DNA of 64,000 bases from Alphaproteobacteria bacterium (lineage in GTDB: Bacteria > Pseudomonadota > Alphaproteobacteria > UBA9219 > RFNS01): the NCBI GenBank assembly GCA_037200005.1, contig JBBCGY010000001.1:889812-953811 (forward strand). Reading direction: 5' to 3'. The notes under the pieces were generated by a model. It worked only from the letters and a program-made list of their open reading frames with translations. It was not told the origin of the DNA and did not search any database. Shown one piece after another: positions 365 through 38,394 of this stretch (within the stretch, counting starts at the first letter, position 1; each line of letters opens with the position of its first letter). The position numbers and the translations under genes are program-made.

Positions 365-439
365 TGGAGCGGGCGAAGGGATTCGAACCCTCGACCCCAA
401 CCTTGGCAAGGTTGTGCTCTACCCCTGAGCTACGCCCGC
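365..439 (-). tRNA. tRNA-Gly (anticodon GCC)
   Basis: Minus-strand read GCGGGCGTAGCTCAGGGGTAGAGCACAACCTTGCCAAGGTTGGGGTCGAGGGTTCGAATCCCTTCGCCCGCTCCA. 7-bp acceptor stem, GGTTCGAATCC T-arm, anticodon loop TTGCCAA, CCA encoded. Confidence 0.9.
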
Positions 440-6018: not shown

Positions 6019-7755
6019 ATGATTTCCGGTCCGTTCAGGATCGACGCCATGGGATGGAAGGATGTATTGGTGCCGCGAAATCTTGCCTCACTGACATTGG
6101 GTTGCGCCACGGTGCTGCTGCTTACGCTGTCGGCGTGCGGCGACGTCCATGTGCCGGAGGCCAAATCACTCATTGGCCGGAGGCCGGCCTTGCCGGAGGT
6201 GCCGCAGCCTGATGAAACCGTGCGCGGCGAGGACGATCCCGCCGTCGTTACGTTGAAAATCGGCCGTACCTTGCATGAACGGTATCTCGGACGCGCCGAT
6301 GATTTGCCGAGCGATGTCATCATTCCGCCGACCACTTTGCAGAATGTGCCGGTTACGGCGGCGCTCGAAGCTGTTCTGGCGGGCACGGACTTTTCGCTTT
6401 CATACACGGAAGGCGATTATTCGGACCGGCTCGCGACGCTGGTGAATCTTCGCGGGCCCTTGCCGAAAGTCGTGCAGCGAATTTGCTCGGCGGCCAAGAT
6501 TTTCTGCATTGCCCGCGACGGCAATCTGGAACTGAAAGAAGAACAGAATTTTATCATCGAGCTGCCGCCTATCGAGCGTCATGGAACCGGCGGCGGCGTT
6601 GCCGCCACCAATACGATTGCCGACGCCATTTCCGCGCTTGCCGGAAAGCCTGTCAAGCAGGACGAAGCGGGCGGCAATCTTATCTATACGACGACCGTCG
6701 AAGGCCAGGAGCGCGTGAGCAAATATCTGGAGCAGTTGCGGCATGGAAGGCCGCTGATCGTGCTGCAGATGTATATCTGGGAGGTGTCGCTCGATTCCGA
6801 AGCGGCGGCCGGAATCAATTGGAAGAATCTCAACGTGTCCAAGCTCGGCGGCGACTGGCAAAGCCTGGCGATCAATTCCGGCGCGAGCACCTTTGCCGCC
6901 GCGACCGGCGGCGTCAGCGTGGGCGCGGTCTTAAGCGGAAAGGTCGGCGCGGAGATCATCGCCAACTTCCTGGCCACCCAAGGCGAGGTGCAAACGATCA
7001 GCGATCCGCAGCTGACCTTCGTATCGGGATCGTCCGCCGAATTTCGCGTCGGCGGCACCCGCAGCTATGTTTCCCAGGTCGGACAGCTGACTTCCAATAA
7101 TGTCTCGGGCTCTTCATCGAGCGCCAACGGCATCGGCACCAATACCGTATCGACCGATAAAATCGAAACCGGGCTGAAAATCAATGTCAACGGCTCTTAT
7201 GAATCGGGCGTGGTGTTTTCTACCCTCGAGGTGAACATTACCGATTTGATCAGGATCGATTCGGTCCAAACGGGGGAAACGACCCTGCAGCTGCCCGAAA
7301 CCAGCAACCGCAATTTCACCACGGTATTGCGTGTGCGTCCCGGCGACAGCATGGTGCTGGCGGGCATGACGTCGTCGCGCGACGATTCGGTTCGCGACCG
7401 CCTGAACATACCTTTGATCAACCGGATACCGCTTAACCGCGACGACCAGAAGCAGAACCGGGAATTGGTGGTCATGCTCAAGCCGTCGCTCATTTTCTTT
7501 GCCGACGCCAAGACCGTGGAAGATCGGCAGCGCGAGGAAGCCCCGTCCATGCCGGTGAAAGCCGGCGTTGAAAACAACGCCATAGCGCCGCAACAATCCA
7601 TCCCGGTCTCGCAAACGGACAAGCCGCAATTACCGTCGGCTGTCGGCGTGGCCGATGGCTTGGCTATCGATAAGGAATGGATGCAGCAGGGATTTGCTTC
7701 CGCCCTCGCCGAGTTATCGGGAGAGCCGCCGCAGACAGGGCGGGGACAGCCATGA
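6019..7755 (+). CDS. Secretin (GspD/PilQ/TcpC superfamily) with N-terminal lipoprotein signal
   Basis: Lipobox LLLTLSAC. C-terminal secretin domain (LIVLQMYIWEVSLD...VLRVRPGDSMVLAGMTSSRDDSVRDRLNIPLINRIPLNRDDQKQNRELVVMLKPSLI). Confidence 0.8.
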   Translation: MISGPFRIDAMGWKDVLVPRNLASLTLGCATVLLLTLSACGDVHVPEAKSLIGRRPALPEVPQPDETVRGEDDPAVVTLKIGRTLHERYLGRADDLPSDVIIPPTTLQNVPVTAALEAVLAGTDFSLSYTEGDYSDRLATLVNLRGPLPKVVQRICSAAKIFCIARDGNLELKEEQNFIIELPPIERHGTGGGVAATNTIADAISALAGKPVKQDEAGGNLIYTTTVEGQERVSKYLEQLRHGRPLIVLQMYIWEVSLDSEAAAGINWKNLNVSKLGGDWQSLAINSGASTFAAATGGVSVGAVLSGKVGAEIIANFLATQGEVQTISDPQLTFVSGSSAEFRVGGTRSYVSQVGQLTSNNVSGSSSSANGIGTNTVSTDKIETGLKINVNGSYESGVVFSTLEVNITDLIRIDSVQTGETTLQLPETSNRNFTTVLRVRPGDSMVLAGMTSSRDDSVRDRLNIPLINRIPLNRDDQKQNRELVVMLKPSLIFFADAKTVEDRQREEAPSMPVKAGVENNAIAPQQSIPVSQTDKPQLPSAVGVADGLAIDKEWMQQGFASALAELSGEPPQTGRGQP

Positions 7756-9014
7756 AGCGGTGGTGGATTGTCATGGCCGTGATGGCGATTGTCCTGGGGC
7801 AATCGGGGGGACGGGCGTACGCCGCCCGCGACGCATCCTTCATCGAACCCGGGGCGTTGACGACCAAGGGGAATGTCGCCGAGGCCATCGTCGCCGATCC
7901 TAAATTATACGATGCCGGCGAGACCATGATTGGAATCGCCCGGCGCATCACGATGTTTTTCGTCAATACCAACAGCGGAACGGTCACGATCGGCGAGATC
8001 TCCGCTGCCGGGGACGGCAATGTTACGGTGCAGATTCTCGACAACGACTGCAAGAGAAACGGCAAGCTGGTGGGATTCAGCCGTTGCACCGTCGTCCTGT
8101 CGATTACGCCGACCAGCGTCGGCCCGTGGAGCGTCGAAACCTTGGTCGAGCATGACGGCTCGGGACGGCTGGCGCGCGGCATCGTCACGGGCAAGGCGCA
8201 GATCGATCCCAGGGCGCTCAGGTCCGCGGAAGGACTCAATCTTACCAGCAAAGAAGTCAAGGCGGTGGATTTCAATGATGTCAGCGCCGACGGCGAAGGC
8301 GCGGTGCGAACCGCCCTCATGGTCAATGACAGTCCCGAGAATATAACCTTGCTGTCGATTGAGGTCATCGCGGCCGGACGAGGCCTGGAAAGACTCGACC
8401 AAGGCTGCGCCGTCAATCAAATGCTCAAACCCGATGAGTCTTGTCCCATCACGTTGCGGTGGCAACCGCAGGACAAGGGGGCGATTTCAACCGATTTGAT
8501 CGTGCGTCATACCGGCAAGGCCGGTTTTACGGTTATTCCCGTGCGCGGGCGCTCACAAGGCGGAACGAAAGTCGAGAGCGCCGCCAAGGAAACCCGCATA
8601 ACGCCTTCAACCGGCACCCCGGCCCCTCCCACGGCGGCTGAAATCGAACATCTCGCGGGCAAGCTTCCCGCCGTCGCCGCCATCGATCTGGGCAGCGACC
8701 GGGTCAAGAGCCCCGCGAAAAGCGATAGCGAGATATATTTCATCGGCGCTGTCGGCGACCGGGCCATATTCCAGCGCGATGGAATCACCAAAGTGCTTGC
8801 GATCGACAGCGAAACCGAACTGTCGGGAGCGCATGTCAGGCTGATCGAGATTTCCGGCAAAGTCGCCACCGTCGAGGTCGATGGCCGCCGCAAATATTTG
8901 AAATTGGGCTCTTCCGGTTATCGGCCTTCTTCATCTTTGGTTAAGAAAGACAAGGCTGTTTCTGAAAAAAAGGATGCCGCGTCAAGTAATTCGCAATCTT
9001 CTTTTGGTAAATAA
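7753..9014 (+). CDS. Secreted periplasmic/outer-membrane-associated protein of the pilus operon. Function unknown.
   Basis: Start ATGA-overlaps the secretin stop. Signal peptide MKRWWIVMAVMAIVLGQSGGRAYA. Two internally similar Cys-pair modules (C..C then beta-rich segment). Confidence 0.5.
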
Positions 9015-9060: not shown

Positions 9061-10839
9061 ATGACATGCCCGCCCCGGCGAAAGGAAGAGAACGTGAACG
9101 AGACCACGCGCGTGGCAGGCATCGAGACCGACGGGAAGAGCCAGCAGGTCAATCCCCGGCACTATGAACTTGCTCGCGCGGAGCAGGCGGTTCACCGCGC
9201 TCGCGGGCGCCATTTAAGCATCGACGACATATTGAAGCGCAATGGCTTTGCCGAAAGCAGCAAGGCCAAGGAAAACGCCACCCGCACCCGCGACGATCTG
9301 ACGATGCAAGCCTTGCGGCTGTATATACCCGCCGCGACCCAGGCGGCGATGGGAATTTGTCTTATGGGATTGAGCGGCGGCGTGTTGCGCATCGCCGTGG
9401 GCGACCGTTTGCACCAGGAAGACATGGATCGCCTTACGGCGGTGCTGACGACTGCGCGCCGCAAGGTCGAGCGCGTTGAAATAGAGCCGTGGGATCGTGC
9501 CGAGCTGACTCGTCTGATGCGCGAGCAATCGGAAATGCCCGGCGAGCGGCTGCTGCGGATATTCTCCAGCCTCAGCCGCGATTCCGACGATTCGACGCTG
9601 ATCGAACAGGCGGTGCATGACATTCTGGCCGAAGCCTTGCAGAGCCGCACCTCGGATATCCATATGACGCTGCAGGACGACGACGTGCGCTGCTGGGTGC
9701 GCTATCGCGTCGACGGCGATCTCGTCTACAAGCACTTGCTTCCGAACCGGGTGATGGCGCCGATCGTCACGCGTATCAAGACCGACGCTAAAATGGACGC
9801 TGCCGACCGCCAGCATCCGCAAGACGGACGCCTCACTTTCGAGTGGCAGGGACGCATGATCGACGTGCGCGTCGCCTGCCTGCCGGTCGCGCCCTCGGGC
9901 GAGAAAATCACGATGCGTCTTCTCGATCGCGAAAATTTGCGCAGCTTCGACGAGCTGTTCAATCACTCGGAAGTGGTGGCCGCCCGCCTTCGCCGCACCC
10001 TGCACGGCCATGTCAAGGACGGCGGCTTGATCGTGGTGTCGGGTCCCACCGGGTCGGGCAAGTCCACGACGCTGTACGGAATCATTCAGGACATCGACCG
10101 CACCGCCAAGGCCGTTTATTCGGTCGAGGCGCCGGTCGAATACGACATGCCTCTGGTCGACCAGACTTCCGTCACCGACAATTCCGCCAACACGATCGCC
10201 GATATTATCCGCGCCTTTATGCGGCATGATCCCGACGTCATCATCGTCGGCGAAATGCGCGATGGCGATACCGTCGAGGCCGCGTTGCGCGCCACGGAGT
10301 CCGGGCATCTCGTCATCACGACCGTTCACGCCGTCGACGCCTTGCATACGCTTGACCGTATCGACGGCTTTTTGAGTTCGGCGTATCGCACCAGCGGATT
10401 GTATATTTTGGGGCATGCGCTGGTGGCCAGCCTGTCGCAGCGTCTCGTGAAAACCGTATGCCCGTCCTGCCACCGCACCGCGCGCGCGGGCGAAGTCTAT
10501 ACAGGAGAGCTGCGGTGCGAGGATTTGGGACTCGATCCCGACGAGGATGTCGGACTGGCCAATCCGGAAGGGTGCGATCTTTGCCATCACCGCGGCTTCT
10601 TCGGCCGGGCGTTGGCGCTTGAAGCCATGTTCCCTCCCGAAGATCAAAGCAGCCGGCGGGCCATCACCGAAATGCTCGTGTCCAACGTTTCGAACTCCAT
10701 TACCGACATCCCGGGCACGATTTACATGCCGCGGCGGGATTCGATCCGCGATCTTATCAGACGCAAGGCCGTGGACGCTCATATGGGCGCGGCGCTTCTG
10801 ATTGAAGAAGCGGCCACCCGTAGTTCGCGGGGGCGCTAG
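9061..10839 (+). CDS. Type II secretion/type IV pilus assembly ATPase (GspE/PilB family)
   Basis: GspE N1 domain, Walker A GPTGSGKSTT, Asp/His boxes (DPDVIIVGEMRD, HLVITTVHA). C-terminal tetracysteine CPSC...CDLC. An alternative GTG start at 9094 is preceded by AGGAAG. Confidence 0.9.
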   Translation: MTCPPRRKEENVNETTRVAGIETDGKSQQVNPRHYELARAEQAVHRARGRHLSIDDILKRNGFAESSKAKENATRTRDDLTMQALRLYIPAATQAAMGICLMGLSGGVLRIAVGDRLHQEDMDRLTAVLTTARRKVERVEIEPWDRAELTRLMREQSEMPGERLLRIFSSLSRDSDDSTLIEQAVHDILAEALQSRTSDIHMTLQDDDVRCWVRYRVDGDLVYKHLLPNRVMAPIVTRIKTDAKMDAADRQHPQDGRLTFEWQGRMIDVRVACLPVAPSGEKITMRLLDRENLRSFDELFNHSEVVAARLRRTLHGHVKDGGLIVVSGPTGSGKSTTLYGIIQDIDRTAKAVYSVEAPVEYDMPLVDQTSVTDNSANTIADIIRAFMRHDPDVIIVGEMRDGDTVEAALRATESGHLVITTVHAVDALHTLDRIDGFLSSAYRTSGLYILGHALVASLSQRLVKTVCPSCHRTARAGEVYTGELRCEDLGLDPDEDVGLANPEGCDLCHHRGFFGRALALEAMFPPEDQSSRRAITEMLVSNVSNSITDIPGTIYMPRRDSIRDLIRRKAVDAHMGAALLIEEAATRSSRGR

Positions 10840-10842
10840 GGC

Positions 10843-12066
10843 ATGAAACTCTATCACGCCAAATATGCGCAGCCTCTTCCTGGCGGCACGGTGACCATCC
10901 GGGAGGAGGATTTTTATCTGCCCGACGTGATCTCGGTGCGGCGGCAGTTGCGCGGACGCGGCCTGTGGCCGATCAAGATTCTCGAGCAAAAACCGCCTGC
11001 CTTCGAATGGCTGGATGTCCGCAGCCGCGAGTGGCAGAAGCAGTTGCTGCGCGCCCTGCGGTTTCAGACGGCGACCGCTTCGGCCGGCACGGCGCTTTTG
11101 AACATCATCGAAGGCGAGGCCGATGCCCGCCGCCGCATGGTGTTTCTGCCTGCGCGAACGGTGCTGAAGGGAGGCGGTTCTTTCTCCGACGCCCTGAAGT
11201 CCCTGAAGCTTATGGACGCCGCGACGATGGCGATCATCGTCTCGGGCGAGCGCGCCGGAGATTTGAAGGGCGTCATCCAGCATGCCATGCAGCATGTCGA
11301 GGAGAAAGGCAAGCAGACCAAAGTGGTGCTCGCCGCGCTCAGCTGGATGGCGTTCGACATATCCAACGTCATTTCCGCGCTGTGGGGCGCGCAGTTCGGC
11401 TTCATCCCCTATTTGCGCGCCAACGCGCCCACGAACACCACGCCCGAGCAGATGCAGAAGCTGGAGACGGCCATCACGCGCGCCTCGTGGATCAATGGTT
11501 CTCTCATCGTCATCACGACCGCCGTGATCGGCGGCGCGATCGTGCTGGCCGCGGCGTTCTGGATGAACCGGCACAAAGCCGACCATCTGGCGGCGCGCCT
11601 TGTCATGAGGGTGCCGCTGTTCGGCGAGTATCTGCGGAATTCGGCGCTGTTCGACACTTGCCGCCTGATAGCCAGGCTCTTGAACGGCAAGGTGCCGCTC
11701 GATGAGGCGCTCAAGATCATCATCGAAACCACCATCGAGCCTTCGGCGCGCAGCTATTGGCGCGAATGCAGAAGCCGTATCATGAAGGGCATCGAGCCGA
11801 GCAAGGCTCTGGCGCGCTGGCCTCTCACCAAAGGCGAACGCGACCAGATTGCGACCGTGCAGTCGGTCGATCAGCTTACCGAAGTCTATGAGGCCATTGC
11901 CGCCGAACGGCAATTGATGGCGAAGGCAACGCAGCGGCGCATCGTCGTCAGCGGCGTGGCCTGCATGATGACGTTGTTCGGCGCCGTGGTTCTTACGATG
12001 ATCTATCTGCTCATGATCCAGAATTCCGGGTTCATGGACAGCTTGCAGGGAATGCGCGAAGGATAA
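10843..12066 (+). CDS. Inner-membrane platform protein (GspF/PilC family)
   Basis: Two T2SSF-like repeats (ERAGDLKGVIQHAMQHVEEKGKQ; GKVPLDEALKIIIE). Three TM segments. Start 4 nt after the ATPase stop. Confidence 0.85.
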   Translation: MKLYHAKYAQPLPGGTVTIREEDFYLPDVISVRRQLRGRGLWPIKILEQKPPAFEWLDVRSREWQKQLLRALRFQTATASAGTALLNIIEGEADARRRMVFLPARTVLKGGGSFSDALKSLKLMDAATMAIIVSGERAGDLKGVIQHAMQHVEEKGKQTKVVLAALSWMAFDISNVISALWGAQFGFIPYLRANAPTNTTPEQMQKLETAITRASWINGSLIVITTAVIGGAIVLAAAFWMNRHKADHLAARLVMRVPLFGEYLRNSALFDTCRLIARLLNGKVPLDEALKIIIETTIEPSARSYWRECRSRIMKGIEPSKALARWPLTKGERDQIATVQSVDQLTEVYEAIAAERQLMAKATQRRIVVSGVACMMTLFGAVVLTMIYLLMIQNSGFMDSLQGMREG

Positions 12067-12080
12067 AAACAAGGATAAAA

Positions 12081-13122: not shown

Positions 13123-13677
13123 ATGAAAGCCATGGGAAACATATCCGACCTGTTGTCTCCTCTCCTTATCGCCAAGGTATTGCGGTCGCTTGACCGCACG
13201 GCGATGGTGATGATGATCGTCGCCTGGTCGGCGGCGATGGGGATGATGGGAATCGCGATTTACACCGTCAAGACGGCGGGCCGCACCAGCCAGCAGGCCG
13301 AAGCCGCCGCCGCGCTGGAACCGGTGGTGCCGACTATGCAGCGGACGGCATTGCCCCGCGCCGACCTGGAAAAACTGGCCGACCGGCTTGCCTCGCGCTA
13401 TCGCGGGGTATCTTTCGTGGCGACCCCGGATAACACCCTGGATATTGCGAACAGCGAGCCCAACAATTTCATGGACTGGCTGGCCTCGCTCAGTTATCTC
13501 GACACGATCGCGCCGGAGGCGCGATGGACGATCCGCGACCTGTGCATCGGCAGCGAATGCGGCCAGGCGCTCATGCGGGCCAGAATCGTGGGAGAACGGG
13601 TCACATTTAAAGCGCCCGCCCAGCCGGATCTGGAAAATATCGGTGGCGACGGGGAATCCGCTCCCGCCAAGCCATAA
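13123..13677 (+). CDS. Bitopic N-in single-TM periplasmic protein (GspM/PilO-like)
   Basis: TM helix AMVMMIVAWSAAMGMMGIAIYTV near the N-terminus, about 130-aa periplasmic domain. Position follows the L-like gene. Confidence 0.35.
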   Translation: MKAMGNISDLLSPLLIAKVLRSLDRTAMVMMIVAWSAAMGMMGIAIYTVKTAGRTSQQAEAAAALEPVVPTMQRTALPRADLEKLADRLASRYRGVSFVATPDNTLDIANSEPNNFMDWLASLSYLDTIAPEARWTIRDLCIGSECGQALMRARIVGERVTFKAPAQPDLENIGGDGESAPAKP

Positions 13678-13936
13678 TTGATGCTCATGCGCTAGCAATT
13701 TTGTCACACTTGCGTTCAATTCTAGATTGGCTGCGCGCGATACGATTATTTAGGGTAGTATTCCGAACAGGAGTTCTTAATGATCGTCTGGTATGATTCA
13801 ACTCGGCAATTTGCTTAACTTAGTCTTAACCTAAGAACCGTAATACATGTGCGTTACGGCTTATGCGGTTTTGGCAAGGTGAGCGATTGCTGCTACTCCA
13901 GGACGATTGGTGCCTGGAACATAAGGGGAGATAAAA

Positions 13937-14611
13937 ATGCAAAACAAGAACGTCTCGCGGCTTCCTAAGGACGCCGGTATCGCTATCGGCCCTATCCTGT
14001 TCGTGGTAGCCATCCTTGGCATTCTGGCCGCGGCGATCGCGGCGGGCAGCGGCTCCTTCACGGGAAGCAGCGCTTCAGAATCCAGCAAAACCAAGGCGGC
14101 CGCGCTGATCGACATGGGGCAAAACCTCAAGGTCGGCGTCGATAGGATGCTTGGCCTCGGTTATGACGGCGGAACCACCTCGGGCACGTCCATAGACATT
14201 AATCCGGTCAATACATCCGGCGACGACGATTTATTCTCGCCGTCAGGCGGAGGAATCAGCGCGCCATCGGTAGCCATGGCCAACACGCCATCCACCGATA
14301 GATGGAACTATTCCAGGCATATTGTCACTAATATGGGAAGTGCAACAGCCACGACCGGCCGGGATCTTACGGCGTTTATACGGATCGCGGCGACCGTGTG
14401 CAATCAAGTCAACGTCAAGGTTGTTGGCGCTCCGGCGACTTTGGATGTGACCACGAACGTCAACTATGCGGCAGACGCCGGCAATCTTGCGACGGATGAA
14501 GATGGAAATTGGGCGCCGGCGCTTGCAGGGCAGATGACGGGCTGTTTCAAGAATACCGCCTCCGCTCCTTGGGACGGATACTGGTACTATCAGGTTCTCG
14601 CCATCCAATAG
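13937..14611 (+). CDS. Pilin-like protein: basic leader, 23-aa hydrophobic N-terminal segment, C-terminal Cys pair. Possible type IVb-class major pilin without Glu5.
   Basis: MQNKNVSRLPKDAG then IAIGPILFVVAILGILAAAIAAG. Cys residues about 50 aa apart near the C-terminus (TVCNQ...TGCFK), resembling a pilin D-region. Strong RBS AAGGGGAG. Confidence 0.5.
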   Translation: MQNKNVSRLPKDAGIAIGPILFVVAILGILAAAIAAGSGSFTGSSASESSKTKAAALIDMGQNLKVGVDRMLGLGYDGGTTSGTSIDINPVNTSGDDDLFSPSGGGISAPSVAMANTPSTDRWNYSRHIVTNMGSATATTGRDLTAFIRIAATVCNQVNVKVVGAPATLDVTTNVNYAADAGNLATDEDGNWAPALAGQMTGCFKNTASAPWDGYWYYQVLAIQ

Positions 14612-14628: not shown

Positions 14629-14672
14629 AGCCGCCATTCCTGCATGCAGCGGGGATGGCGGTTTCTTTTTGG
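14629..14672 (+). terminator. Rho-independent terminator after the pilin-like gene
   Basis: Hairpin CCGCCATTCC...GGGATGGCGG followed by TTTCTTTTT. Confidence 0.6.
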
Positions 14673-14801
14673 GCCTGCGCTGCCTTAAGGCATGGATTAA
14701 CCACAACCGCCTAATCACCCCGCAATTTACAACCAAGGCTTCGATGTGCTAACAGCATGATCGGCGCCGCCTTGTAAAATTGCGGGCGTTCGCGCCTCCG
14801 G

Positions 14802-25244: not shown

Positions 25245-26201
25245 CCGAACCCCAGCCACGGATTATGACTCATCACCGCCTTGATGACGGCAGGCCAGAT
25301 GACTGTTCTGCCCGATAACGTGGCATCGCGCCCCATCATTGCGGTTGCCGATGCGAGTTCTGACGTATCGACCATGAACATCATCGGCACAATAACAACC
25401 AATATAATTACCCCCGATATATGATCCCACTCTGGTTCTTCTCATCAATTTCGTAAGATAAAAAATCCCTATCATCGACGTCAGCAAAAGCCATGCGCCG
25501 CGCGATAACGACCCAATGGCAAGAATGATTGATATAACGAACAGAAAAATCCCCATTCTGCGCGATGTTTCGGCATGCATCAGCAGGAGAGCGATCAATG
25601 TGCTGGCAACCATCGTGCTGCCCATTGTGTTCTTGTGGTTAAAATAGCCGCGAAATGCCGGATAATGCTTATCGTGATGGATGCCCTGCGCCGGGTCGAG
25701 AATGACCGCCAGCAAGGTCACTAGACAGACGGCAATCATGCAGTAGCCTAGAATCCTAAGGAATTGCGGCGACGAGTACCTGGTTACGAAATAGAAGGCC
25801 AGCATCGTACCGCCGAGCGCATTGATCGAACGCCTGAGCGTCACGGTCGGATCAATCGACCACACGACTGAAAGCACCGTCAGGACGCCGATCACCGCCA
25901 AAGGCCAGGCGGCCTTGATCACGGGAAGGCTTTTTCTCCATCTGATCACCAGATAAAGCAGCGCGTAAAAATAAATCGGCATAAGAATGATCTGGCGAAT
26001 TGGATTGACGATATCGCCCTGCCCTCTTTGAGCGATCAAAGGCGAGCCTACGTGCGAGTCTTCGTCACCGCCCGTGCCGTAGAAAAGCACGCCGCATGCG
26101 CCCGTAACCATAAGAATGGCGACCAAGATAAGCAAGAATTCGAGGCTGAAAATCCTCACCCGCTTATTCTTATTCAAGCTTTCACTATACTGCGTATCCA
26201 T
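25157..26201 (-). pseudogene. O-antigen ligase/Wzy_C-like polytopic membrane protein, frameshifted near 25400
   Basis: Multi-TM N-terminal part in ORF 25263-26201. Wzy_C-like C-terminal piece (GRTVIWPAVIKAVMSHNPWLGFGYDSFWSSY) in ORF 25157-25402 in another frame. Confidence 0.45.
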
Positions 26202-26204
26202 ATC

Positions 26205-27354
26205 TTACGCCTTCTCCAGAAATTCATGCAGCGCGCGCCACATCGGTTTGCGCCGCATATTATCATCAAGGGGCAGCCCCCGGATCCGTCGCCCTGTGGG
26301 ATTGCTCTTATTCCACTTCGCATTGGACAGCCAGCTATGGCGGTCGCTGAGACCCCAGGTCAAAATTTGTTTCGGCACGGCGACCGAAGAAATAATATCC
26401 AAGAATTCCTTCGTTTTAGCCGCGACCCGCTTATCGTTTTCTTCTTGCGTAGCGCGGGCGGAATCAAAAACGTCCAGCTCGGTAATGATGACTTCCAGGC
26501 CCAGACTCTTCGCTTCCTTGCAGAAATTCTCGAGAGGATCCAGCTTCGATCCGGTATGCATGTGAGCTTGCAGCCCCACCGCATGAATGGGAACGTTTTT
26601 GTCCTTAAGGCCGCGAAGCAGCTTCAAAGCCGCCTTGGCTTTAACAGACCCCGCCTCGATCTGGTAATCATTATAGACCAATTGCGCATCAGGATCCGCC
26701 TGCGCCGCCATCCGGAAAGCTTTTTCGACATATGAATCCCCCATGGCCTCCCGCCACGGCGTATCCCGCATCTGGTCTCCAAGCCACCATGCCTCACCGG
26801 GCTTGAGAGCTTCATTGACGACATCCCAGGATAAAAATTTTCCCTTATAGCGGGACATGACGGCGCCGATATGCTCTTCCATCAAAGCCTCGGCCTTGCT
26901 TTTATCGTCTTCCAGCGCCTTCTTGGCCCAAGCGGGCAAAGCCTCGTACCAGATCAGCGTATGCCCGCGCATTTTCATGCCATGGCTCTGCGCGTATTCA
27001 AGCAGCTTGTCGGTCGGGCCGAAATTCCATTTGTCACGCTCCGGATGAATTATATCCCATTTCGTGGCGCCCTCCGCGACGACGATGTTGCACTCCCCGC
27101 GCCACCGCATCGCTGAAATCCGCTTCATAATCTTTTCCGCCCTTGGATATATCCAGCCGCGCGGCATCGGTGGCGCAGCCGAAATAAATTCCCTTCTTGG
27201 CCGCCGTTTCACGCAGGGGCGGCAGGGATTCATAATCATATCCGGCCGCAGCGGTCTGCGCCGCCGCGAATTTCGGCAGCATCGCTCCAGCCGCGACCGC
27301 TGCGGAAAGCTCGATGAAGTCGCGCCTTGTCAAATCTCCGGTTCGATTTTTCAT
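26205..27354 (-). CDS. GH10 glycoside hydrolase (endo-beta-1,4-xylanase family) with Tat signal, frameshifted near 27100-27240
   Basis: Catalytic regions WDVVNEAL and ITELDV. The Tat leader and N-terminus (TRRDFIELSAAVAAGAMLPKFAAA) are in ORF 27034-27354 in another frame. Paralog of 30679-31818. Confidence 0.65.
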
Positions 27355-28517
27355 GCGGCCTCCTCTCTTTTCCTGGATGGAATGTACTTTTCCATGGCCT
27401 GCCTTAATTCAATATCCTCGACAAAGTCTTCCGGCGAGAAGTCGCTTTCCTTATAACGCCCGTATTTCCAGTTATCGGAAATAGGCTTGAAATGGCGATA
27501 GACATACTCCTTCGCGGGCAGGAATTTGCTCGGCTGGTTGGCGATGCTGTGCACCGTCCATGTATTAAGGGCCGCAGAGCATTTGCGAGGCACCGCGCAC
27601 CATTTGTTGGCGCATTTCGACGTGTCTTCTTTCTCAAAATAATAATAATGCGCATGGCGGCGCACGCCGCCCGTAATTTCGGCGGCGCTCGCATTGCTTA
27701 TCCAGACTCCGCCGAAATGCGTCACGCCGAAGATCGAAGCCTCGGCGCGCTCATAGACGGATTGCGGCGATTTCGAGACGATCAGCTCGTCGATGTCGCA
27801 GTTCAGTACGCTCCGCGCCTTTTGCAGGAACCTGAAACGGGCGTGCTGAAGAACGCCAATCTGGCAGAAAACGGAATCCCACGGCGCGATCTTCCCGCCG
27901 ACGCCGCCGGAAACTCCCCCCTGAGGCCCATATTTGAAGGGCCACGAAATCACCAGGATGAGAAGGCCGGGAAACGCCGACGAAAGCGCATCCTGCAGTT
28001 CGCCCGGCGAGTATTTGTCCGAATTGTTGTCGTAGAACAGGACCGCATCCGTTCCCTGGCTGTTCACGTAATATGTTATCCAGTCTATGATCCAATGGAT
28101 CTCATTGTTCTTGGATAGCGTCAGCAAGACGCGCTTGCCCGCGAACAGGCCGTTCCCGTCCGGCTGGACATCAATGTCGAAAGAGCCGAGATCGCCGCGA
28201 AGGGATATTTTCTTGTCGTCGCTCTTAATCCAAATATCGTTAGCCAGTTTTCGATCATAAATCCTGTTTTGGAAATTCAAGGCTCCCAGCTTGCTCGCAA
28301 AGTATGGATATCGCGTCAGGCGCTCTTTAAGGTTAAAAAGCGGCGGCCCCTGAAAAACAACGTATTTTCCTGACGCATACACGTCATAAAACAGCGTCTT
28401 CCAATCATATTGGCCTTCGTAATTTTCATTCCTTAGGCTTAATGGCCTTGGCGCATCCCTGGCAACAGGCACGTCGTCAGGAATCGTGCAAATGCTTAGC
28501 TTTATCGTATTGGGCAT
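27351..28517 (-). CDS. Hypothetical protein with DxD-like motif (NCDIDELIV). Possible glycosyltransferase. About 45% GC.
   Basis: 388 aa, no TM segment, AT-rich codon usage unlike its neighbours. Sits within the polysaccharide gene cluster. Confidence 0.35.
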   Translation of the reverse strand: MPNTIKLSICTIPDDVPVARDAPRPLSLRNENYEGQYDWKTLFYDVYASGKYVVFQGPPLFNLKERLTRYPYFASKLGALNFQNRIYDRKLANDIWIKSDDKKISLRGDLGSFDIDVQPDGNGLFAGKRVLLTLSKNNEIHWIIDWITYYVNSQGTDAVLFYDNNSDKYSPGELQDALSSAFPGLLILVISWPFKYGPQGGVSGGVGGKIAPWDSVFCQIGVLQHARFRFLQKARSVLNCDIDELIVSKSPQSVYERAEASIFGVTHFGGVWISNASAAEITGGVRRHAHYYYFEKEDTSKCANKWCAVPRKCSAALNTWTVHSIANQPSKFLPAKEYVYRHFKPISDNWKYGRYKESDFSPEDFVEDIELRQAMEKYIPSRKREEAA

Positions 28518-28627
28518 AAACTTCTCCTGACGAGCCGGCCATTTATAATACTTCTCTGTAATTCCAATGCCTTTATACCCGGATTTATTACTTTCAACAT
28601 ATTGTTTTATCTACCTATAGGGCGGTT

Positions 28628-29650
28628 TTATGGCAAAAAAACCAGTCTTTGTAAATTATAGCGAGTCAGACCCTTATAGATCAGAACCGGGATGCCTATG
28701 CCCGCAACCATGCCGCTCAATAAATGAATGCCCGGCGAGACGATGCCCACTTTCAGCAGCATAACCCGCCATGCCGCCAGGAAGATGATATGCATGACGA
28801 AAACGATGAGGGAAACCTTGCCCAATGCCGCCAAAGCCCTGCCGATGGGGAACTTGCTTAACCACTGGCTCGCCAAAAACACCAAAAACATCGCGGCAAA
28901 GGTCGCCGGCAGGACGATAATGCTGAAATACGGCACATGCTCTGAAATGCCCAGGGTCAGAAATGCCGCAAAAAGCATGGGAGAAAGCGCTCCCGCGATC
29001 ACGCATCGCCTGTGGGTCACGATCGCCTGAGGCCAGGATTTAGAGGCGGCATAGGCCCCCAGGAAGTAAAATACCCCGAAATCCGCGAGGCTCGCATATT
29101 CGGCGGAATCGATGTTCGCGGCCTCGGGATACGGTTCCACCGCCAGATGCCGGGCCAGATAAAGCCCGATGGCGATGATGAAGGCGAGGCCATACCGATC
29201 CTTCAAGGCCGCGGCGACAAGATGAAAAATCAGCAAGGCATACAGAAACCAGAACTGGGCGACGGGAATGTAAAACGGGGTCAACAAAGCTTCGATGCCG
29301 ATGGGATTATTGACCTGCTTGGACATCACGACCTTAAGGCCGACCTGAAGAATGGCCCAAAAGAAATACATCGGCACCAGCAGCTTGGTGCGGCGCCACG
29401 CGGAAATCCTGGCCGACGACCGGCTCAGGCTGCCATGCACATTATATCCCGCCAGCAAAAGGAATAGCGGCATATGCCAAAGATAAAATGAATAATCGAC
29501 GACCTCCCAAAGACTGTCAGCGGAAGAAATCCCCGCATTGACTAGCCCGCGCCAGACATGGCTATAGACCACGGCGGTGATGCCAATGCCTTTGGCGATA
29601 TCCTGAGCAGCGCTTCGGTCAATGAATTTTTGCTGATTTGTTCCGGTCAC
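28628..29650 (-). CDS. Acyltransferase family 3 (OafA/OpgC-like) integral membrane O-acyltransferase
   Basis: About 10 TM helices and the N-terminal AT3 conserved segment (ITAVVYSHV...WHMPLFLLLAGY). Confidence 0.75.
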   Translation of the reverse strand: MTGTNQQKFIDRSAAQDIAKGIGITAVVYSHVWRGLVNAGISSADSLWEVVDYSFYLWHMPLFLLLAGYNVHGSLSRSSARISAWRRTKLLVPMYFFWAILQVGLKVVMSKQVNNPIGIEALLTPFYIPVAQFWFLYALLIFHLVAAALKDRYGLAFIIAIGLYLARHLAVEPYPEAANIDSAEYASLADFGVFYFLGAYAASKSWPQAIVTHRRCVIAGALSPMLFAAFLTLGISEHVPYFSIIVLPATFAAMFLVFLASQWLSKFPIGRALAALGKVSLIVFVMHIIFLAAWRVMLLKVGIVSPGIHLLSGMVAGIGIPVLIYKGLTRYNLQRLVFLP

Positions 29651-30675
29651 GTCGTTATCGCGTCTAGAACTTTGATCCGGCGCAGAACCAGGACCTTAAG
29701 GGCAACAGGCCCCAAAATGCCCGCCGCGATCAGGATCGGGAGGAAAATCAGGAAATGATAACCATCCCAATTCATGAAACGCATCAGAACGCCCTTTGTC
29801 AGACCAATGAAGATAGTGTTGAACAGATAAATCACGAACGTATAGCCGGCAAGGAAGGCAAGGATACTGGAACGGCTGAAGACCGGCCGACGCATCACGG
29901 CATGGATCGCGGGCAAGGCAAGAAGATCAAGCGCATCCCTGCATAACTCCCAGTAGGGAAATGGGCTCATCACGGCCAAAAGCGCAAGCGATAATATGAA
30001 AACCGCCGCCAGAACCAGCCAGTGGCGGTCGAGAAACCGCCGGTAGGATTCCATATATCGAACCGTCACGCCGCCCAGTATGAAGAATACGAAGAAACCT
30101 CCCACCCGCCACAGATAGAAATACTCGGGCAGCGGCGCGTAATGCAGCGCCGCCGCCAGCGCGAGCAGAGCCCATGCCTTGCCTCTCATGAGCCACATCA
30201 GCGGCGGCACGATCGCGCAATAGACGAACATCACATAGACGTACCAGATCGACGTCGCCGGGCCGGAGTCCGTATTGATGAACATCGCCTTCAGCCCGTC
30301 CGTCAGGCCCGGCGGCTGGCGGTCGACGGTCATGAAATGGCTGAACGCCAGTTTACCGAGGATAATCGTCAGGCCGAACAGCACGAACGGCAGCAGAAAG
30401 CGGAAAGCCCGCTTTTTCAGGAAATCCCAGTATTTTCCTGGCGGCGTTTCCGCCGCGCCGGTGTAAAACATCACGATGCCGCTCAGATACATGAACAAGG
30501 GCATGTGAAACATATAGATGGCGTCGCTTAGCGACATGAACCATTCATTGCCGGCAGGCTGAGCCGCGCCACGGCTTACGATATGGCCGATCACGACCAG
30601 CAGGATGGCGAAGCCCTTGGCCTGATCGATGTCATGCAGCCTCGGCCGCGGCGGTTTTGCGGAAATCCCGGACAT
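29647..30675 (-). CDS. Acyltransferase family 3 membrane protein
   Basis: AKGFAILLVVIGHIV...FHMPLFMYLSG. Polytopic. 4-nt overlap with the downstream AT3 gene. Confidence 0.75.
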   Translation of the reverse strand: MSGISAKPPRPRLHDIDQAKGFAILLVVIGHIVSRGAAQPAGNEWFMSLSDAIYMFHMPLFMYLSGIVMFYTGAAETPPGKYWDFLKKRAFRFLLPFVLFGLTIILGKLAFSHFMTVDRQPPGLTDGLKAMFINTDSGPATSIWYVYVMFVYCAIVPPLMWLMRGKAWALLALAAALHYAPLPEYFYLWRVGGFFVFFILGGVTVRYMESYRRFLDRHWLVLAAVFILSLALLAVMSPFPYWELCRDALDLLALPAIHAVMRRPVFSRSSILAFLAGYTFVIYLFNTIFIGLTKGVLMRFMNWDGYHFLIFLPILIAAGILGPVALKVLVLRRIKVLDAITT

Positions 30676-30678
30676 AAC

Positions 30679-31818
30679 CTACGCTTTTTCCAGGAATTCA
30701 TGAAGCACATGCCACATCGGCTTGCGCTTCAAGTCATCATCGAGCGGCAGGCCGCGAATATGATGCCCTTTCGGATTGCGCCACACGTTCCATTGCGCGC
30801 TGGACAGCCAGCTATGGCGATCGGTCAGGCCCCAGGCCAGGATTTGCTTGGGCACCGCGACCGTGAACACGATGTCCAGGAACTCGCGCAGTTTGGCGGC
30901 AACCAGCTCATCGGTCTTTTTCGAATCGGTATTGAAGGACGGGTCGAAAACATCGAGCTCCGTGATGATGATATCCAAACCGAGCTTCTTCGCTTCCTCG
31001 CATAAAGCCTTCAGCGGCGCGAAGTTCGTCTCAAGGTCGATATGCGCCTGCAAACCAAGGGCATGAATAGGGACATTCTTGTCTTTCAGGCCGCGCAATA
31101 ATTTTATCGCCGACGCCGATTTCGCGGGCCGCTGCTCGATATCGTAATCGTTATAGACCAGTTGAACGTCCGGATCGGCCTGCGCCGCAAGCCGGAAGGC
31201 TTTTTCTATATAAGACGGCCCCAGCGCCTTCAGCCACGGCGTGTCGCGCAGTCCTTCCTCATTCCCCTCGCCCCTGCCCTTGAGGGCTTCGTTCACGACA
31301 TCCCAGGAAACGAGCTTGCCTTTGTAATGGCCCGCCACTTTGGCGATATATTCCTCCATCAGGGCTTCGCCCCTGCCCTCTTTGAGAGCTTGCTCCGCCC
31401 AGGCCGGAAACGCCGCGTGCCATATCAGCGTATGGCCGCGCATCTTCATGTCGTATTTCTTCGCATATTCCAATAGCTGGTCGGCGAGCCAGAAATCCCA
31501 TTTCTCCGGCGTCGGATGGAGAGCGTCCCATTTCATGATGCTCTCGGCGACCAAGAGATTGCATTCGCGGGCGATGGCGTCGTTGAAGTCCTGCTCGTAA
31601 TAGGGGCTGAACGCCTTGGTAATCTCCAGACGCGCGGGCTCGACGCTCGAACCATAGAGGATGCCCTTCTTCGCCGCCGTTTCGCGCAGCGGAGGCAAGG
31701 ATTCATAATCGTATTTTACGGTTTCAGTTTCCGCCATCGCAAATTTCGGAAGCATCGCGCTCGTGGCCGTCGCCGCGGATAGGGCGATAAAGTCGCGGCG
31801 AGTTAGCTCTCGTTTCAT
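30679..31818 (-). CDS. GH10 glycoside hydrolase with Tat signal (intact paralog)
   Basis: Twin-arginine leader TRRDFIALSAATATSAMLPKFAMA. GH10 catalytic Glu contexts WDVVNEAL and IITELDV. Confidence 0.85.
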   Translation of the reverse strand: MKRELTRRDFIALSAATATSAMLPKFAMAETETVKYDYESLPPLRETAAKKGILYGSSVEPARLEITKAFSPYYEQDFNDAIARECNLLVAESIMKWDALHPTPEKWDFWLADQLLEYAKKYDMKMRGHTLIWHAAFPAWAEQALKEGRGEALMEEYIAKVAGHYKGKLVSWDVVNEALKGRGEGNEEGLRDTPWLKALGPSYIEKAFRLAAQADPDVQLVYNDYDIEQRPAKSASAIKLLRGLKDKNVPIHALGLQAHIDLETNFAPLKALCEEAKKLGLDIIITELDVFDPSFNTDSKKTDELVAAKLREFLDIVFTVAVPKQILAWGLTDRHSWLSSAQWNVWRNPKGHHIRGLPLDDDLKRKPMWHVLHEFLEKA

Positions 31819-31821
31819 TTT

Positions 31822-33753
31822 TTATCCTCCTGTCGCGTTCTCCGCGATCTTCAGTACGGGCAGCATGCCAGCCTTGCGGATTTTCTCAAACACATGCGCC
31901 GAACCCTCTGCCGTCAGATGGCCGTAGTCGAACTGGATCGGGACATCTTCTCCGGCCATGGTCTCGCATGCCTGTCCGCCGGGGCACATAACGTCAAAGA
32001 AGGAGATATAGCGCACGCCGTTTTCCGCAGCGAGCTTCGCCATCTCGCCGTCAAGCTGCGCAAAAGTTTCGACGCGGTGGCGAAAGGAATAGGCGGCGTC
32101 GTTCTTTTGGGCGGAAAGCGCGAGCAGCCGGGGCAACGCCGCGTCATACTGCACCATCGGCCCGAACAGCACGACGGCGTCCGCGTATTTCTTCGCATAG
32201 GCCAGAGTCTCGGGCAAGCGCGCCACGTCCTGGCTATTCCAGCGTCCGGCGATGAGCAGGACGTTCACCCGATGAGCGGGAAGATATTCCCGAAAAACAT
32301 AATCCATGAGCTTTGTGCAGCGCTCATAGGAGCTCATAGAATGATTGAGCGTCGGCTTGCAGCCTGAAGCAGCCGCCTGCATGATATTCAAATCGGGGAA
32401 AACCGCTGAAAGGCCGTGCCATAAATGAGCGGCATGGGAATCCCCCAGCAGGAGATAATCGTTATTTTTACCTTCACTGCGTTGCAGGCAGAAAGAAGGG
32501 TCATAGACCATATCTCCGCTTTCTATAAAGCAAGACGCGGCCTTACTGGTCTTTTCGCCGTCATAATTCATATATGAAGCGATCTTGATGACTTGAGGCG
32601 AGTAGCGGAATGCGAGCCCGTCGGCGACCACGATTCCGATCGCCAGCAGCGTGCAGAAGGCGGCGGCGGCTCCGGCCCAGCGGAACAGGACGGGGCGCGT
32701 GAACGATTTCCGGTCGCGGAACGGCGTCTCGACAAATTTCCATGAGGCCGCGGCCAGGACGATGGAAAGGCCGATGACATAAAACTTCTCGACGCGCGGC
32801 GGCAACCCGGCGGACATGAATCCCATGCCGTGGAACACGATCACCGGCCAATGCCAGAGATAGAGCGAATACGAGATAAGGCCGATAAATACGACTGGCG
32901 GCAGCGACAGCAGCTTGCCGCCCCAGGATTCCCCCGTCTCCCCCGCCGCGATAAACAGCGCCGCGCCCAAACAGGGCAGAAGCGCCGCAAAACCAGGAAA
33001 CGGCGTGTCCGAGGAATAGAGCGGAACGCAGACGAGGATCATCGCAAGACCGGCGAGGCTGGCCAGGTTACGCCATAGCGCGCCACGGATTTCCGGCACG
33101 AGCCTCATGCCCAGGACGCAGCCGATCAGCAGCTCCCAGGCGCGGCTGTGCAGCAGATAATAAGACGCCGACGAATGCTGCGCCACGCCGTAGGCGCTGA
33201 GGCCGAGCGAAAACACGGCCAATCCCAGAACAGTCAGCTTCAAATGGCGGCGGAAGCGGCGATAGGCCAGCATGAGCAGGAGCGGAAAGAAGATATAGAA
33301 CTGTTCCTCAACCGCCAGCGACCATGTATGCAGCAACGGCTTCGACATCGAAGCCCCTTCGAAATAGCCCGCCTGGCTCCAAAACAGGAAATTGGAGGCG
33401 GAAAACAGCGCCGCCGGGATGGATTTCGAGAAATCCTTCATCTCGGTCGGCATCAGATAAGCGTAGCCGATGGCCGTCGCGCCGAGCATCGTCACGACCA
33501 GCGCCGGGATGATGCGGCGGATGCGGCGCTCGTAGAAATTGACGATGGAGAAATTCCCGGCTTCGATCTCCGTGGCGATGATGCGCGAGATCAGATAGCC
33601 CGAGATGATGAAAAAAACATCCACGCCGATGAAACCGCCATGGCAGAACGGCATCTCGACATGGCAAGCGGCGACTGCCATGACCGCGACGGCGCGAAGG
33701 CCGTCTATATCCGGGCGGTATTTTGTTCCCTTATGCGCATGTCCCTGAATCAT
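31822..33753 (-). CDS. AT3 acyltransferase fused to C-terminal SGNH hydrolase-like domain (OafA/YrhL-type O-acetyltransferase)
   Basis: N-terminal AT3 membrane domain (DGLRAVAVMAVAACHV...FFIISGYL). C-terminal soluble domain with LLLGDSHAAHL. Confidence 0.8.
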   Translation of the reverse strand: MIQGHAHKGTKYRPDIDGLRAVAVMAVAACHVEMPFCHGGFIGVDVFFIISGYLISRIIATEIEAGNFSIVNFYERRIRRIIPALVVTMLGATAIGYAYLMPTEMKDFSKSIPAALFSASNFLFWSQAGYFEGASMSKPLLHTWSLAVEEQFYIFFPLLLMLAYRRFRRHLKLTVLGLAVFSLGLSAYGVAQHSSASYYLLHSRAWELLIGCVLGMRLVPEIRGALWRNLASLAGLAMILVCVPLYSSDTPFPGFAALLPCLGAALFIAAGETGESWGGKLLSLPPVVFIGLISYSLYLWHWPVIVFHGMGFMSAGLPPRVEKFYVIGLSIVLAAASWKFVETPFRDRKSFTRPVLFRWAGAAAAFCTLLAIGIVVADGLAFRYSPQVIKIASYMNYDGEKTSKAASCFIESGDMVYDPSFCLQRSEGKNNDYLLLGDSHAAHLWHGLSAVFPDLNIMQAAASGCKPTLNHSMSSYERCTKLMDYVFREYLPAHRVNVLLIAGRWNSQDVARLPETLAYAKKYADAVVLFGPMVQYDAALPRLLALSAQKNDAAYSFRHRVETFAQLDGEMAKLAAENGVRYISFFDVMCPGGQACETMAGEDVPIQFDYGHLTAEGSAHVFEKIRKAGMLPVLKIAENATGG

Positions 33754-34889
33754 GGCGAATCAATTCCTCTTGTCTGGGGTACGGCTTGCGGAGAAGCCGA
33801 AGAGAATAATTTACGGAAAACGGCGGAGATGCGGCGGCGTCCCCGGACCTCGATCAGCGCATAGCTGGCCCAAGCGACAAGCCATGCGGCGACAATGACC
33901 GCCGGGGCAAAAACCATGTCCGCGTTCGCCAAGTCGGCAGGCAACACAATTTTAAGACACCGCTTGATCACATCCACCAGAATGCCATGCCACAGATACA
34001 GCGAATAGGAGATCAGTCCCAGGTGATAGATCACCCGGTTCCCGAACAACACGGCGCTTGCGCGGCTGTTGTAATACAGGGAGATAATCAGGAACGGGAT
34101 CACCAGCACGACCGCCACATCGCTGCCCGGAATCGCCAACAGCCCTATAAGCAGAGCGAGAGTTACAAGGACGGCGCCATCGCCTGACATCAACCGGCGG
34201 CATGCGGAATTTTGCGACAGCCTATAAGCTCCCAACCCAAGGCAGAATTCTCCAAGGCAACGCAGCGCGGGCAAAAAGCTGTATTTGTGCGCGTCGAGAT
34301 TGACGACATCGAGCGGGCCCATCTCCCCCTGAGAGGAAACTGCGACCATGAAAATACCCACCACCGAAGCCAAGACTTGCAGCCATACCCAGCGCGAAAA
34401 GGCGATGTATATCAAAAGCGGAAAGAGAGAATAGGCCAGCAATTCGGTGCTTACCGACCACGAATTTCCGACCATGATATGAGCGCCGAGACCCCAGCTA
34501 TGAATCAGCAGGAAATTGGCGATAAGATCGTATGCGCTCAGTTCAAAGTCGTGAACGCCGGAGATATTGACCAGCCATTTCGCGTAGAAGATGGCCGTGA
34601 CCACGAAATAGACCGGATAAATGCGCGCGATCCGATTGACCATGAAGGATGCATAACGAGGCCAGACGCAGCCGTTCTTGAAGTCTTCGCTATATCGAAG
34701 CGCGAGCACGAAGCCGCTGAGCACGAAGAAAAGATCGACGCACAGATATCCCCAGTTCAAGGGAAGGGTGTCGAGAAAGGTGGAATCCTGGTTTTGCCGG
34801 GCGTGCCATTGGATATGATAAAGCATAACCATAAAGGCGGCCAGCCCGCGAACGCCGGTCAACGGCTTGATTTCGTTTTTCATGGCCAT
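33750..34889 (-). CDS. Acyltransferase family 3 membrane protein
   Basis: LTGVRGLAAFMVMLYHI...DLFFVLSGFVL. Polytopic. 4-nt overlap with the downstream gene. Confidence 0.75.
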   Translation of the reverse strand: MAMKNEIKPLTGVRGLAAFMVMLYHIQWHARQNQDSTFLDTLPLNWGYLCVDLFFVLSGFVLALRYSEDFKNGCVWPRYASFMVNRIARIYPVYFVVTAIFYAKWLVNISGVHDFELSAYDLIANFLLIHSWGLGAHIMVGNSWSVSTELLAYSLFPLLIYIAFSRWVWLQVLASVVGIFMVAVSSQGEMGPLDVVNLDAHKYSFLPALRCLGEFCLGLGAYRLSQNSACRRLMSGDGAVLVTLALLIGLLAIPGSDVAVVLVIPFLIISLYYNSRASAVLFGNRVIYHLGLISYSLYLWHGILVDVIKRCLKIVLPADLANADMVFAPAVIVAAWLVAWASYALIEVRGRRRISAVFRKLFSSASPQAVPQTRGIDSP

Positions 34890-35010
34890 GGCCCGCTTTT
34901 CATTGCCATTCCGGACGCCCCTTCATGGAGGCGATCCGGAATCCAGGGAAACAGTGCTTTGCTTGGCATGGATTCCGGTCTCGCGCCCAAGGACGCGCCG
35001 GAATGACAAT

Positions 35011-38319: not shown

Positions 38320-38394
38320 TGGTGGGCGGTGAGGGGATCGAACCCCCGGCAGCCTCGGTGTAAACGAGATGCTCTACCGCTGAGCTAACCGCCC
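38320..38394 (-). tRNA. tRNA-Val (anticodon TAC)
   Basis: Minus-strand read GGGCGGTTAGCTCAGCGGTAGAGCATCTCGTTTACACCGAGGCTGCCGGGGGTTCGATCCCCTCACCGCCCACCA. Cloverleaf with anticodon loop TTTACAC. CCA encoded. Confidence 0.85.

Follow-up and report, generated by a model that had tools for sequence, protein, structure and literature searches.

Type IVb pilins, among them CofA of ETEC CFA/III, TcpA of V. cholerae and PilS of S. Typhi, are recognised by a long leader, a first mature residue other than Phe, a large mature protein and a C-terminal disulfide, while MSHA pilins are canonical Glu5 pilins; this glutamate at mature position 5 is treated as the only universal polar residue of bacterial type IV pilins, and its role is itself debated: it may be charge neutralisation, docking or register. 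In canonical pilins the hydrophobic tract of about 21 residues is “almost invariably” interrupted by Glu5, and classical pilins mutated at Glu5 do not assemble into homopolymeric pili (PMC4471445). Archaeal pilins are often without it (PMC4471445, PMC10710030), and in known systems the subunit lacking Glu5 is the tip subunit (PMC10191384). In Micavibrio ARL-13 a type II secretion system has been described for which the annotation showed no GspC, G, H or K, and most of which is up-regulated during attachment (PMC3189940).

The 64-kb stretch of DNA analysed here (the window) carries a seven-gene type IV filament cluster, encoding in order an outer-membrane secretin, an Ig-domain protein, an ATPase, a platform protein, two single-pass membrane proteins and, last, a pilin-like protein (Table 1). 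In MAGs of related, Micavibrio-like Alphaproteobacteria, about 50 out of 80 loci fetched repeat this order of seven genes with the pilin gene at the end. On either side lie ordinary chromosomal genes: upstream one for a DacA-like carboxypeptidase, downstream the cox operon and operons for ribosomal proteins. The pilin gene itself (ORF 13937..14611, plus strand) encodes 224 amino acids starting MQNKNVSRLPKDAG and continuing IAIGPILFVVAILGILAAAIAAG; a Shine-Dalgarno-like GGGGAG element lies a few bases 5' of its ATG, and the product is identical to NCBI [quoted passage not shown] encoded on a 1.83-Mb contig. An earlier note on this DNA had described the ORF as the last gene of a cluster, which agrees with the terminator-like stem-loop that follows it and with coxB, starting 3' of the stem-loop at 14802. 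The sequence also bears out the 23-residue uncharged segment reported after the start, the lack of a Glu five residues after either candidate cleavage glycine (P19 after G14, V23 after G18), and two Cys about 50 residues apart: C155 and C203, 48 apart, with codons at 14399-14401 and 14543-14545. The region between the pilin gene and the rest of the cluster may hold the pilin gene's own promoter. It contains a single sigma-70-like site (13701-13728), a count not above chance; no sigma-54-like promoter was found upstream of the pilin gene, and overall such matches were fewer than expected by chance.

Table 1. Features of the filament cluster and of the pilin gene, in window coordinates.
Feature	Position	Strand	Remarks
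Outer-membrane secretin, first cluster gene	6019..7755	+	Pfam Secretin PF00263, E 2.6e-16
Periplasmic protein with Ig-like (ASH) domains	7752..9014	+	ASH PF15780; position kept in related loci
Assembly ATPase, GspE/PilB type	9061..10839	+	Pfam T2SSE, E 4.6e-84
Inner-membrane platform, GspF/PilC type	10843..12066	+	Pfam T2SSF, E 7.9e-18, two stretches
Single-pass membrane protein, 343 aa	12081..13112	+	Position kept in related loci, 39-69% identity
Small single-pass membrane protein, 184 aa	13123..13677	+	Position kept in related loci, 25-59% identity
Intergenic region, 259 bp, upstream of pilin gene	13678..13936	.	Candidate promoter region
Predicted leader peptide, residues 1-14 (MQNKNVSRLPKDAG)	13937..13978	+	Ends at invariant Gly
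Hydrophobic alpha1-N, residues 15-37 (IAIGPILFVVAILGILAAAIAAG)	13979..14047	+	Pro19 = mature +5
GSGSF linker, alpha1-C helix (residues 46-73) and globular domain with four strands and C155/C203	14048..14611	+	Stop codon included
Terminator-like stem-loop with T-tract closing the cluster	14629..14673	+	15-pair stem, 9 G-C pairs, then TCTTTTTGGG

Very probably, the pilin gene product is the prepilin from which a divergent type IV filament machine, specific to Micavibrio-like Alphaproteobacteria, makes its major subunit; the hosts are uncultured relatives of the predatory Micavibrio. The earlier note had left a choice between a divergent pilin class, a signal-anchored secreted subunit and a T2SS substrate; the first of these is backed by the gene cluster, the conservation profile, the fold, the alignment register and linkage to an A24 peptidase. 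The family is large, with at least 399 homologous clusters at 90% identity (E<=1e-3), and a full scan of 1.84 billion representatives (50% identity) yielded 1160 at E<=1e-3 and 319 at E<=1e-10; judged by these homologue numbers, a chance ORF is excluded. All named matches are MAGs labelled Alphaproteobacteria, Rhodospirillales, Micavibrio or “Bdellovibrionales,” the last label probably because NCBI taxonomy files Micavibrio under Bdellovibrionales. NCBI annotates the family proteins as hypothetical, and no description of the family was found in the searchable literature.

In an alignment of 35 sequences, G14-I-A-I-G-P-I-L-F, G37-S-G, F41, C155 and C203 are invariant. Pairwise identity within the family is 31% in the leader, 92% over residues 14-42, 60% in alpha1-C and 45% in the globular part. 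The leader, here 14 amino acids with K4, R8, K11 and D12, varies in both length and sequence, reaching about 40 amino acids in homologues, and is followed across the family by the near-invariant stretch G/IAIGPILF...AAIAAGSGSF (slash, predicted cut). The 80 loci contain 96 proteins with this motif, in two subfamilies with a common N-terminus: a major type (83 proteins), usually with two Cys, and a four-Cys type (13 proteins). The exact string GIAIGPILF occurs in 86 of the 96, and positions +1 to +23 lack any charged residue in 92. As read from these alignments, a leader that varies, a Gly that does not and a hydrophobic helix under extreme conservation together form the signature of a type IV pilin, the reverse of the pattern in a Sec signal peptide.

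Another possibility is that the N-terminus is nonetheless a Sec signal peptide or anchor, either cut by signal peptidase I near AAG/S or left in the membrane, the protein then being a periplasmic or secreted accessory, or a substrate, of the machine. The charged n-region, the hydrophobic core and the small residues at -3 and -1 (A35, G37) of a formal A-A-G/S site would suit such a signal, as would the silence of the pilin signature models: searches of Pfam and NCBIfam up to E 0.1 gave no pilin or pseudopilin family, Pfam returning only a chance-level ABC_trans_aux match and NCBIfam nothing. The supposed signal peptide would, however, be 92% identical pairwise against 45% for the mature domain, and the Gly where leader and hydrophobic core meet does not vary. 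The four-Cys subfamily, with the same nine residues, has no consistent A-x-A site (e.g., ...AAYMASDSSNMGG) and is linked to an A24 peptidase, and the structural model runs the segment on into a pilin-type alpha1 helix, within a fold that matches pilins. A Sec signal is thus very unlikely, and the signal-anchored secreted subunit of the earlier note is likewise disfavoured: the N-terminus is the most conserved part of the protein, and is unchanged in paralogues with different mature domains. The reading as a type II substrate was rejected on the pilin fold of the protein and the conservation pattern.

The class III signal of the pilin gene product, as judged from its sequence, is most likely a non-canonical one without Glu5, with Ala at +2 in place of Thr/Ser and Pro at +5 in place of Glu. 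P19 is invariant in 35 of 35 aligned sequences, and Glu at +5 is absent from all 96 motif proteins in the 80 loci, in both subfamilies. In a set of 147 more distant representatives, every N-terminus readable by the motif pattern has Pro at +5 or, less often, Ala, Ser, Met, Thr or Leu, and never Glu. Comparison of the family profile with all PDB sequences gave Geobacter PilA-N as its sole match, a weak one (E 0.44 and 0.91), and on these scores the similarity to canonical pilins is not significant alone (E 0.44). The HMMER alignment register with this protein is exact: G14 falls on the -1 Gly, P19 on Glu5, and VVAILGILAA on VVAIIGILAA.

Known tip subunits lack Glu5 and have a pilin fold (GspK, PilX/PilK; PMC10191384), and canonical prepilins are encoded elsewhere in the genome of Micavibrio ARL-13 (PMC3189940), so the pilin gene could be imagined to encode a GspK/PilX-like minor pilin capping the tip, with a true Glu5 major pilin encoded elsewhere. 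Against this, Glu5 is missing from every paralogue, as well as from the more distant representatives; in GspK and PilX/PilK systems it is one low-abundance cap that lacks Glu5, whereas here it is every pilin, including the one at the major position. A canonical GFxxxE gene is absent both from the window and from two contiguous clusters of related lineages (L060 and L064, described below). The pilin gene occupies the usual major-pilin position, with its own upstream region and terminator; tandem duplicates of it are common in related loci, several relatives having a second copy. A tip pilin appears quite improbable, and was rejected on the absence of Glu5 from all paralogues.

The checks proposed in the earlier note are sound ones, and its AlphaFold test yielded a fold like that of a pilin. 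The AF2 model (pLDDT 87.4, pTM 0.76) combines a four-stranded sheet with a long N-terminal helix broken at GSGSF, the first part at residues 18-38 and alpha1-C after the break; it matches type IV pilins, with CofA closest. The protein resembles type IVb pilins also in its fairly long, variable leader ending in Gly, in a first mature residue that is not Phe (here Ile), in a mature size of about 210 amino acids and in a Cys pair in the C-terminal half; it differs from them in that the family has Pro, not Glu, at +5. The Cys pair had been likened to a D-region. The pair is there, but the analogy is only a loose one, since in the model it joins a helix (152-162) to a strand (201-206). Nor is the hydrophobic segment unusually long, as had been claimed, given a canonical tract of about 21 residues (PMC4471445): it looks long because no Glu interrupts it. 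Of the features of bacterial type IV pilins, those found here are the hydrophilic leader ending in Gly, the hydrophobic alpha1-N tract, the pilin fold and the linked ATPase and platform; the family lacks Glu5 and a match to a curated pilin model.

In 10 of 10 loci where a gene of the four-Cys subfamily lies apart from the cluster, the gene directly following encodes 155-180 amino acids and matches Pfam Peptidase_A24 (PF01478), at 28.7 and 32.7 bits against a gathering score of 26.5. Residues D27 and D99 of this protein, the latter in GxGDAKW, are invariant in seven of seven sequences, and its relatives are named prepilin peptidase by NCBI and JGI; at 155-180 amino acids it is too short for a methyltransferase domain. 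For nine of these 10 split loci with the peptidase, the main cluster is present in the MAG as well (e.g., WBK91_00950 and WBK91_09895). In L060 and L064 the arrangement is contiguous, with machinery, major pilins, two minor pilins and peptidase followed by a convergent secF; both represent deeper lineages, L064 being a complete 1.64-Mb chromosome. The A24 gene thus adjoins paralogues starting G/IAIGPILF in 12 of 12 loci, and this adjacency, including that in the contiguous L060 and L064, ties the peptidase to proteins with this start. Searches of the window gave no GxGD-type peptidase motif, no second copy of the pilin motif, no minor pilin and no paralogue of the cluster genes, and protein-database searches, with a profile and with the sequence of the closest relative, returned no peptidase from the window's MAG, so for this genome we infer the cleavage step.

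A peptidase consisting of an A24 domain only, at 155-180 amino acids, recalls TadV of Tad/Flp systems (PMC10191384). Flp pilins differ in being very small, with the motif G/XXXXEY containing Glu5 and Tyr6, as opposed to IAIGPILF, 210 amino acids and Pro5 here, and GspE/PilB and GspF/PilC are the top-scoring models for the ATPase and the platform, the TadA-family model reaching only 49 bits. Archaeal type IV pilins and archaellins, whose class III signal peptides are processed by PibD/FlaK/EppA, share with this family the absence of Glu5, in archaea a frequent one, a peptidase without a methyltransferase domain and a fully hydrophobic N-terminal segment; unlike them, the present family belongs to a diderm alphaproteobacterium with a secretin, bacterial GspE/PilB and GspF/PilC machinery, and a bacterial-type invariant leader Gly.

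In about 45 related loci, too, the secretin gene precedes that of the pilin. The secretin of the cluster scores best on the NCBIfam model for MshL (97.7 bits; GspD 61.8, T4b PilN 57.4), all far below curated cut-offs. In the window the cluster encodes no peptidase, as has been reported for MSH loci (PMC6668835); the MshL score, however, compares with a cut-off of 250 bits, and no other Msh-specific component was recognised here. The Ig-domain protein, with its likely start at ATG 7752 (4-nt overlap with the secretin stop) and a signal peptide read from the sequence as MKRWWIVMAVMAIVLGQSGGRAYA, may possibly be a GspC/PilP-like connector: the ASH domain PF15780 is matched by 13 of 13 orthologues (best E 3.6e-12), and T2SSC by one of the 13, weakly (E 0.0078). 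The ATPase, 67-85% identical across related loci, contains a Walker A motif (GPTGSGKST) and a tetracysteine motif (CPSC...CDLC), and scores 260 bits on GspE, 238 on PilB and 230 on TfpB, all below equivalog cut-offs. Scores for the platform are 51 bits on GspF, 50.8 on ComGB and 39.7 on PilC, again far below cut-offs.

Neither of the two single-pass membrane proteins is recognisable by family. The 343-aa protein, with no match in Pfam, NCBIfam or PDB-profile searches, consists of about 210 cytoplasmic residues, a transmembrane helix near residues 212-236, and then a periplasmic helix and domain, an architecture that would resemble GspL or a PilM-N fusion; in a single-sequence AF2 model (pLDDT 49) only the membrane and coiled helix are confident. 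The small protein, also without a family or PDB match, has invariant C141 and C146, and its position and topology suggest a resemblance to GspM/PilO. By curated models the machinery falls in no established subtype, since all equivalog scores are far below cut-offs and those for GspE and PilB are nearly equal. The system is not T2SS, T4a, T4b, MSH or Tad as these are currently defined.

If the gene product is a filament subunit, what kind of filament is it? One possibility is a type II secretion system with this protein as its major pseudopilin, which would form no surface pilus but a short piston in the periplasm, driving folded hydrolases out through the secretin. The best-scoring models for the ATPase (GspE) and platform (GspF) point in this direction, as do the single ATPase in the cluster, with no paralogue of it in the window, the two single-pass membrane proteins at gspL/gspM positions, and the name “pseudopilin PulG” that JGI gives to several family members. 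The ARL-13 work, in which the system is a type II system lacking annotated GspC, G, H and K and mostly up-regulated during attachment (PMC3189940), would fit as well; the cox locus of ARL-13 is not adjacent to such a cluster. Like GspG (PulG, EpsG), the pilin gene is found with genes for a GspE-like ATPase, a GspF-like platform and a secretin. It differs from GspG in that its family has no Glu5 and no match to a pilin or pseudopilin model, is about 70 residues longer and has a Cys pair, and GspG systems differ from the cluster in that no recognisable GspC, H, I, J, K, L or M is encoded here. The machinery scores, moreover, lie far below curated cut-offs, with PilB nearly equal to GspE, and the secretin matches MshL better than GspD. 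There are only two pilin subfamilies in the 80 loci, rather than a GspG and GspH-I-J-K set, and the major gene is often tandemly duplicated in relatives. A pseudopilin is therefore possible though rather unlikely. Subunit size and T4b-like fold, tandem duplicates and the MshL-like secretin all point toward a pilus, while a lone ATPase, two genes placed like gspL and gspM, and an ARL-13 type II system without annotated GspG (PMC3189940) leave room for type II secretion; we lean toward a surface pilus.

The proposed pathway is as follows. The prepilin would insert into the inner membrane with its leader (K4, R8, K11) in the cytoplasm and its globular domain in the periplasm, where a C155-C203 disulfide would form. 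The dedicated short A24 aspartyl peptidase, lacking a methyltransferase domain, would cut after the invariant G14, as gene linkage in relatives suggests, leaving a mature N-terminus I-A-I-G-P-I-L-F that is probably unmethylated. By analogy with known type IV filaments, the ATPase, the platform and the two single-pass proteins would then lift mature subunits from the membrane and polymerise them via alpha1-N, and the filament would leave through the MshL-like secretin in the outer membrane. Its core would presumably pack by hydrophobic contacts alone, without a salt bridge from Glu5 to the N-terminus, as in archaeal type IV pili, and the four-Cys subfamily, with the same N-terminus, may serve as minor or priming pilin. 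A homopolymer of Glu5-less subunits would be without bacterial precedent, because Glu5 mutants of classical pilins form none (PMC4471445).

There is perhaps an even chance that this diderm lineage builds a type IV filament entirely from Glu5-less subunits, with Pro5 and Ala2 for Glu5 and Thr2, processed by a dedicated peptidase without methylase. If so, the salt bridge from Glu5 to the N-terminus, described as absolutely conserved in bacterial type IV pili, would be dispensable for assembly in bacteria. A natural bacterial family with Pro in every subunit at the Glu5 position would make the question of Glu5 function directly testable. The machine would also represent a separate type IV filament subtype missed by detection models that need a recognisable major pilin; detectors with this requirement (PMC6668835) would probably overlook it. 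The family may account for the pseudopilin missing from the “type II secretion system” of Micavibrio aeruginosavorus (PMC3189940). Because epibiotic predators belong to the clade of the host, prey contact is a candidate role for the filament, which is possibly used in attachment to prey; if the reading of an all-Glu5-less filament is true, it may serve Micavibrio-like predators in attaching to or feeding on their prey.

Between the secretin and ATPase genes lies a gene for a periplasmic protein with ASH/Ig-like domains, which were matched in 13 of 13 orthologues (13 loci; best E 3.6e-12); such domains are not known to belong to the usual parts of type IV filament machines. The start codon of this gene is probably the ATG at 7752, giving a 4-nt overlap with the secretin stop. 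The small single-pass membrane protein matched no known family in family searches, and across 14 orthologues it has an invariant pair of cysteines, C141 and C146, four residues apart, together with invariant G143, W119, Y125, D127 and W135.

Very long antisense ORFs, of up to 952 aa, run across the ATPase and platform genes; we take these for artefacts of coding-strand base composition (the window is 57.5% G+C overall) rather than genes. The only RNA genes detected in the window are two tRNAs, with no others at the Rfam gathering score. The polysaccharide-type cluster encodes a Wzz/GNVR/AAA_31 tyrosine-kinase-like protein, one GT92 glycosyltransferase, four Acyl_transf_3 proteins (one fused to an SGNH domain) and two Glyco_hydro_10 proteins; the combination of four AT3 acyltransferases with two GH10 enzymes is unusual.

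Coordinates of features in the window and in related loci
Feature	Location	Strand	Remarks
tRNA-Gly(GCC)	window 365-439	-	
Periplasmic protein, ASH/Ig-like domains	window 7677-9014		
Antisense ORF (example)	window 9214-12072	-	read as artefact
Small single-pass membrane protein	window 13123-13677		
Polysaccharide-type gene cluster	window 25263-37152	-	
tRNA-Val(TAC)	window 38320-38394	-	
Pilin genes and A24 peptidase	L064 10001-13889		deeper relative
Pilin genes and A24 peptidase	L060 9897-12581		deeper relative
Tandem major-pilin copy	L003, L004, L006, L022, L027, L042, L044, L054		just downstream of pilin match

The major pilin gene is single-copy in the window; among relatives a second, diverged tandem copy is common, with 33-43% identity to the window pilin. 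In two deeper relatives (L060 and L064) the system is contiguous: downstream of the machinery genes come between one and three genes for major pilins, a pair for minor pilins (one product reading GIAIAPILM or GIAIGPILM) and then the A24 prepilin peptidase gene, with secF convergent beyond it. In the window's lineage, the module of minor pilin, peptidase and secF is a separate locus. Contiguity in the deeper relatives and separation in the window's lineage suggest that the ancestral filament cluster was split at a later stage.
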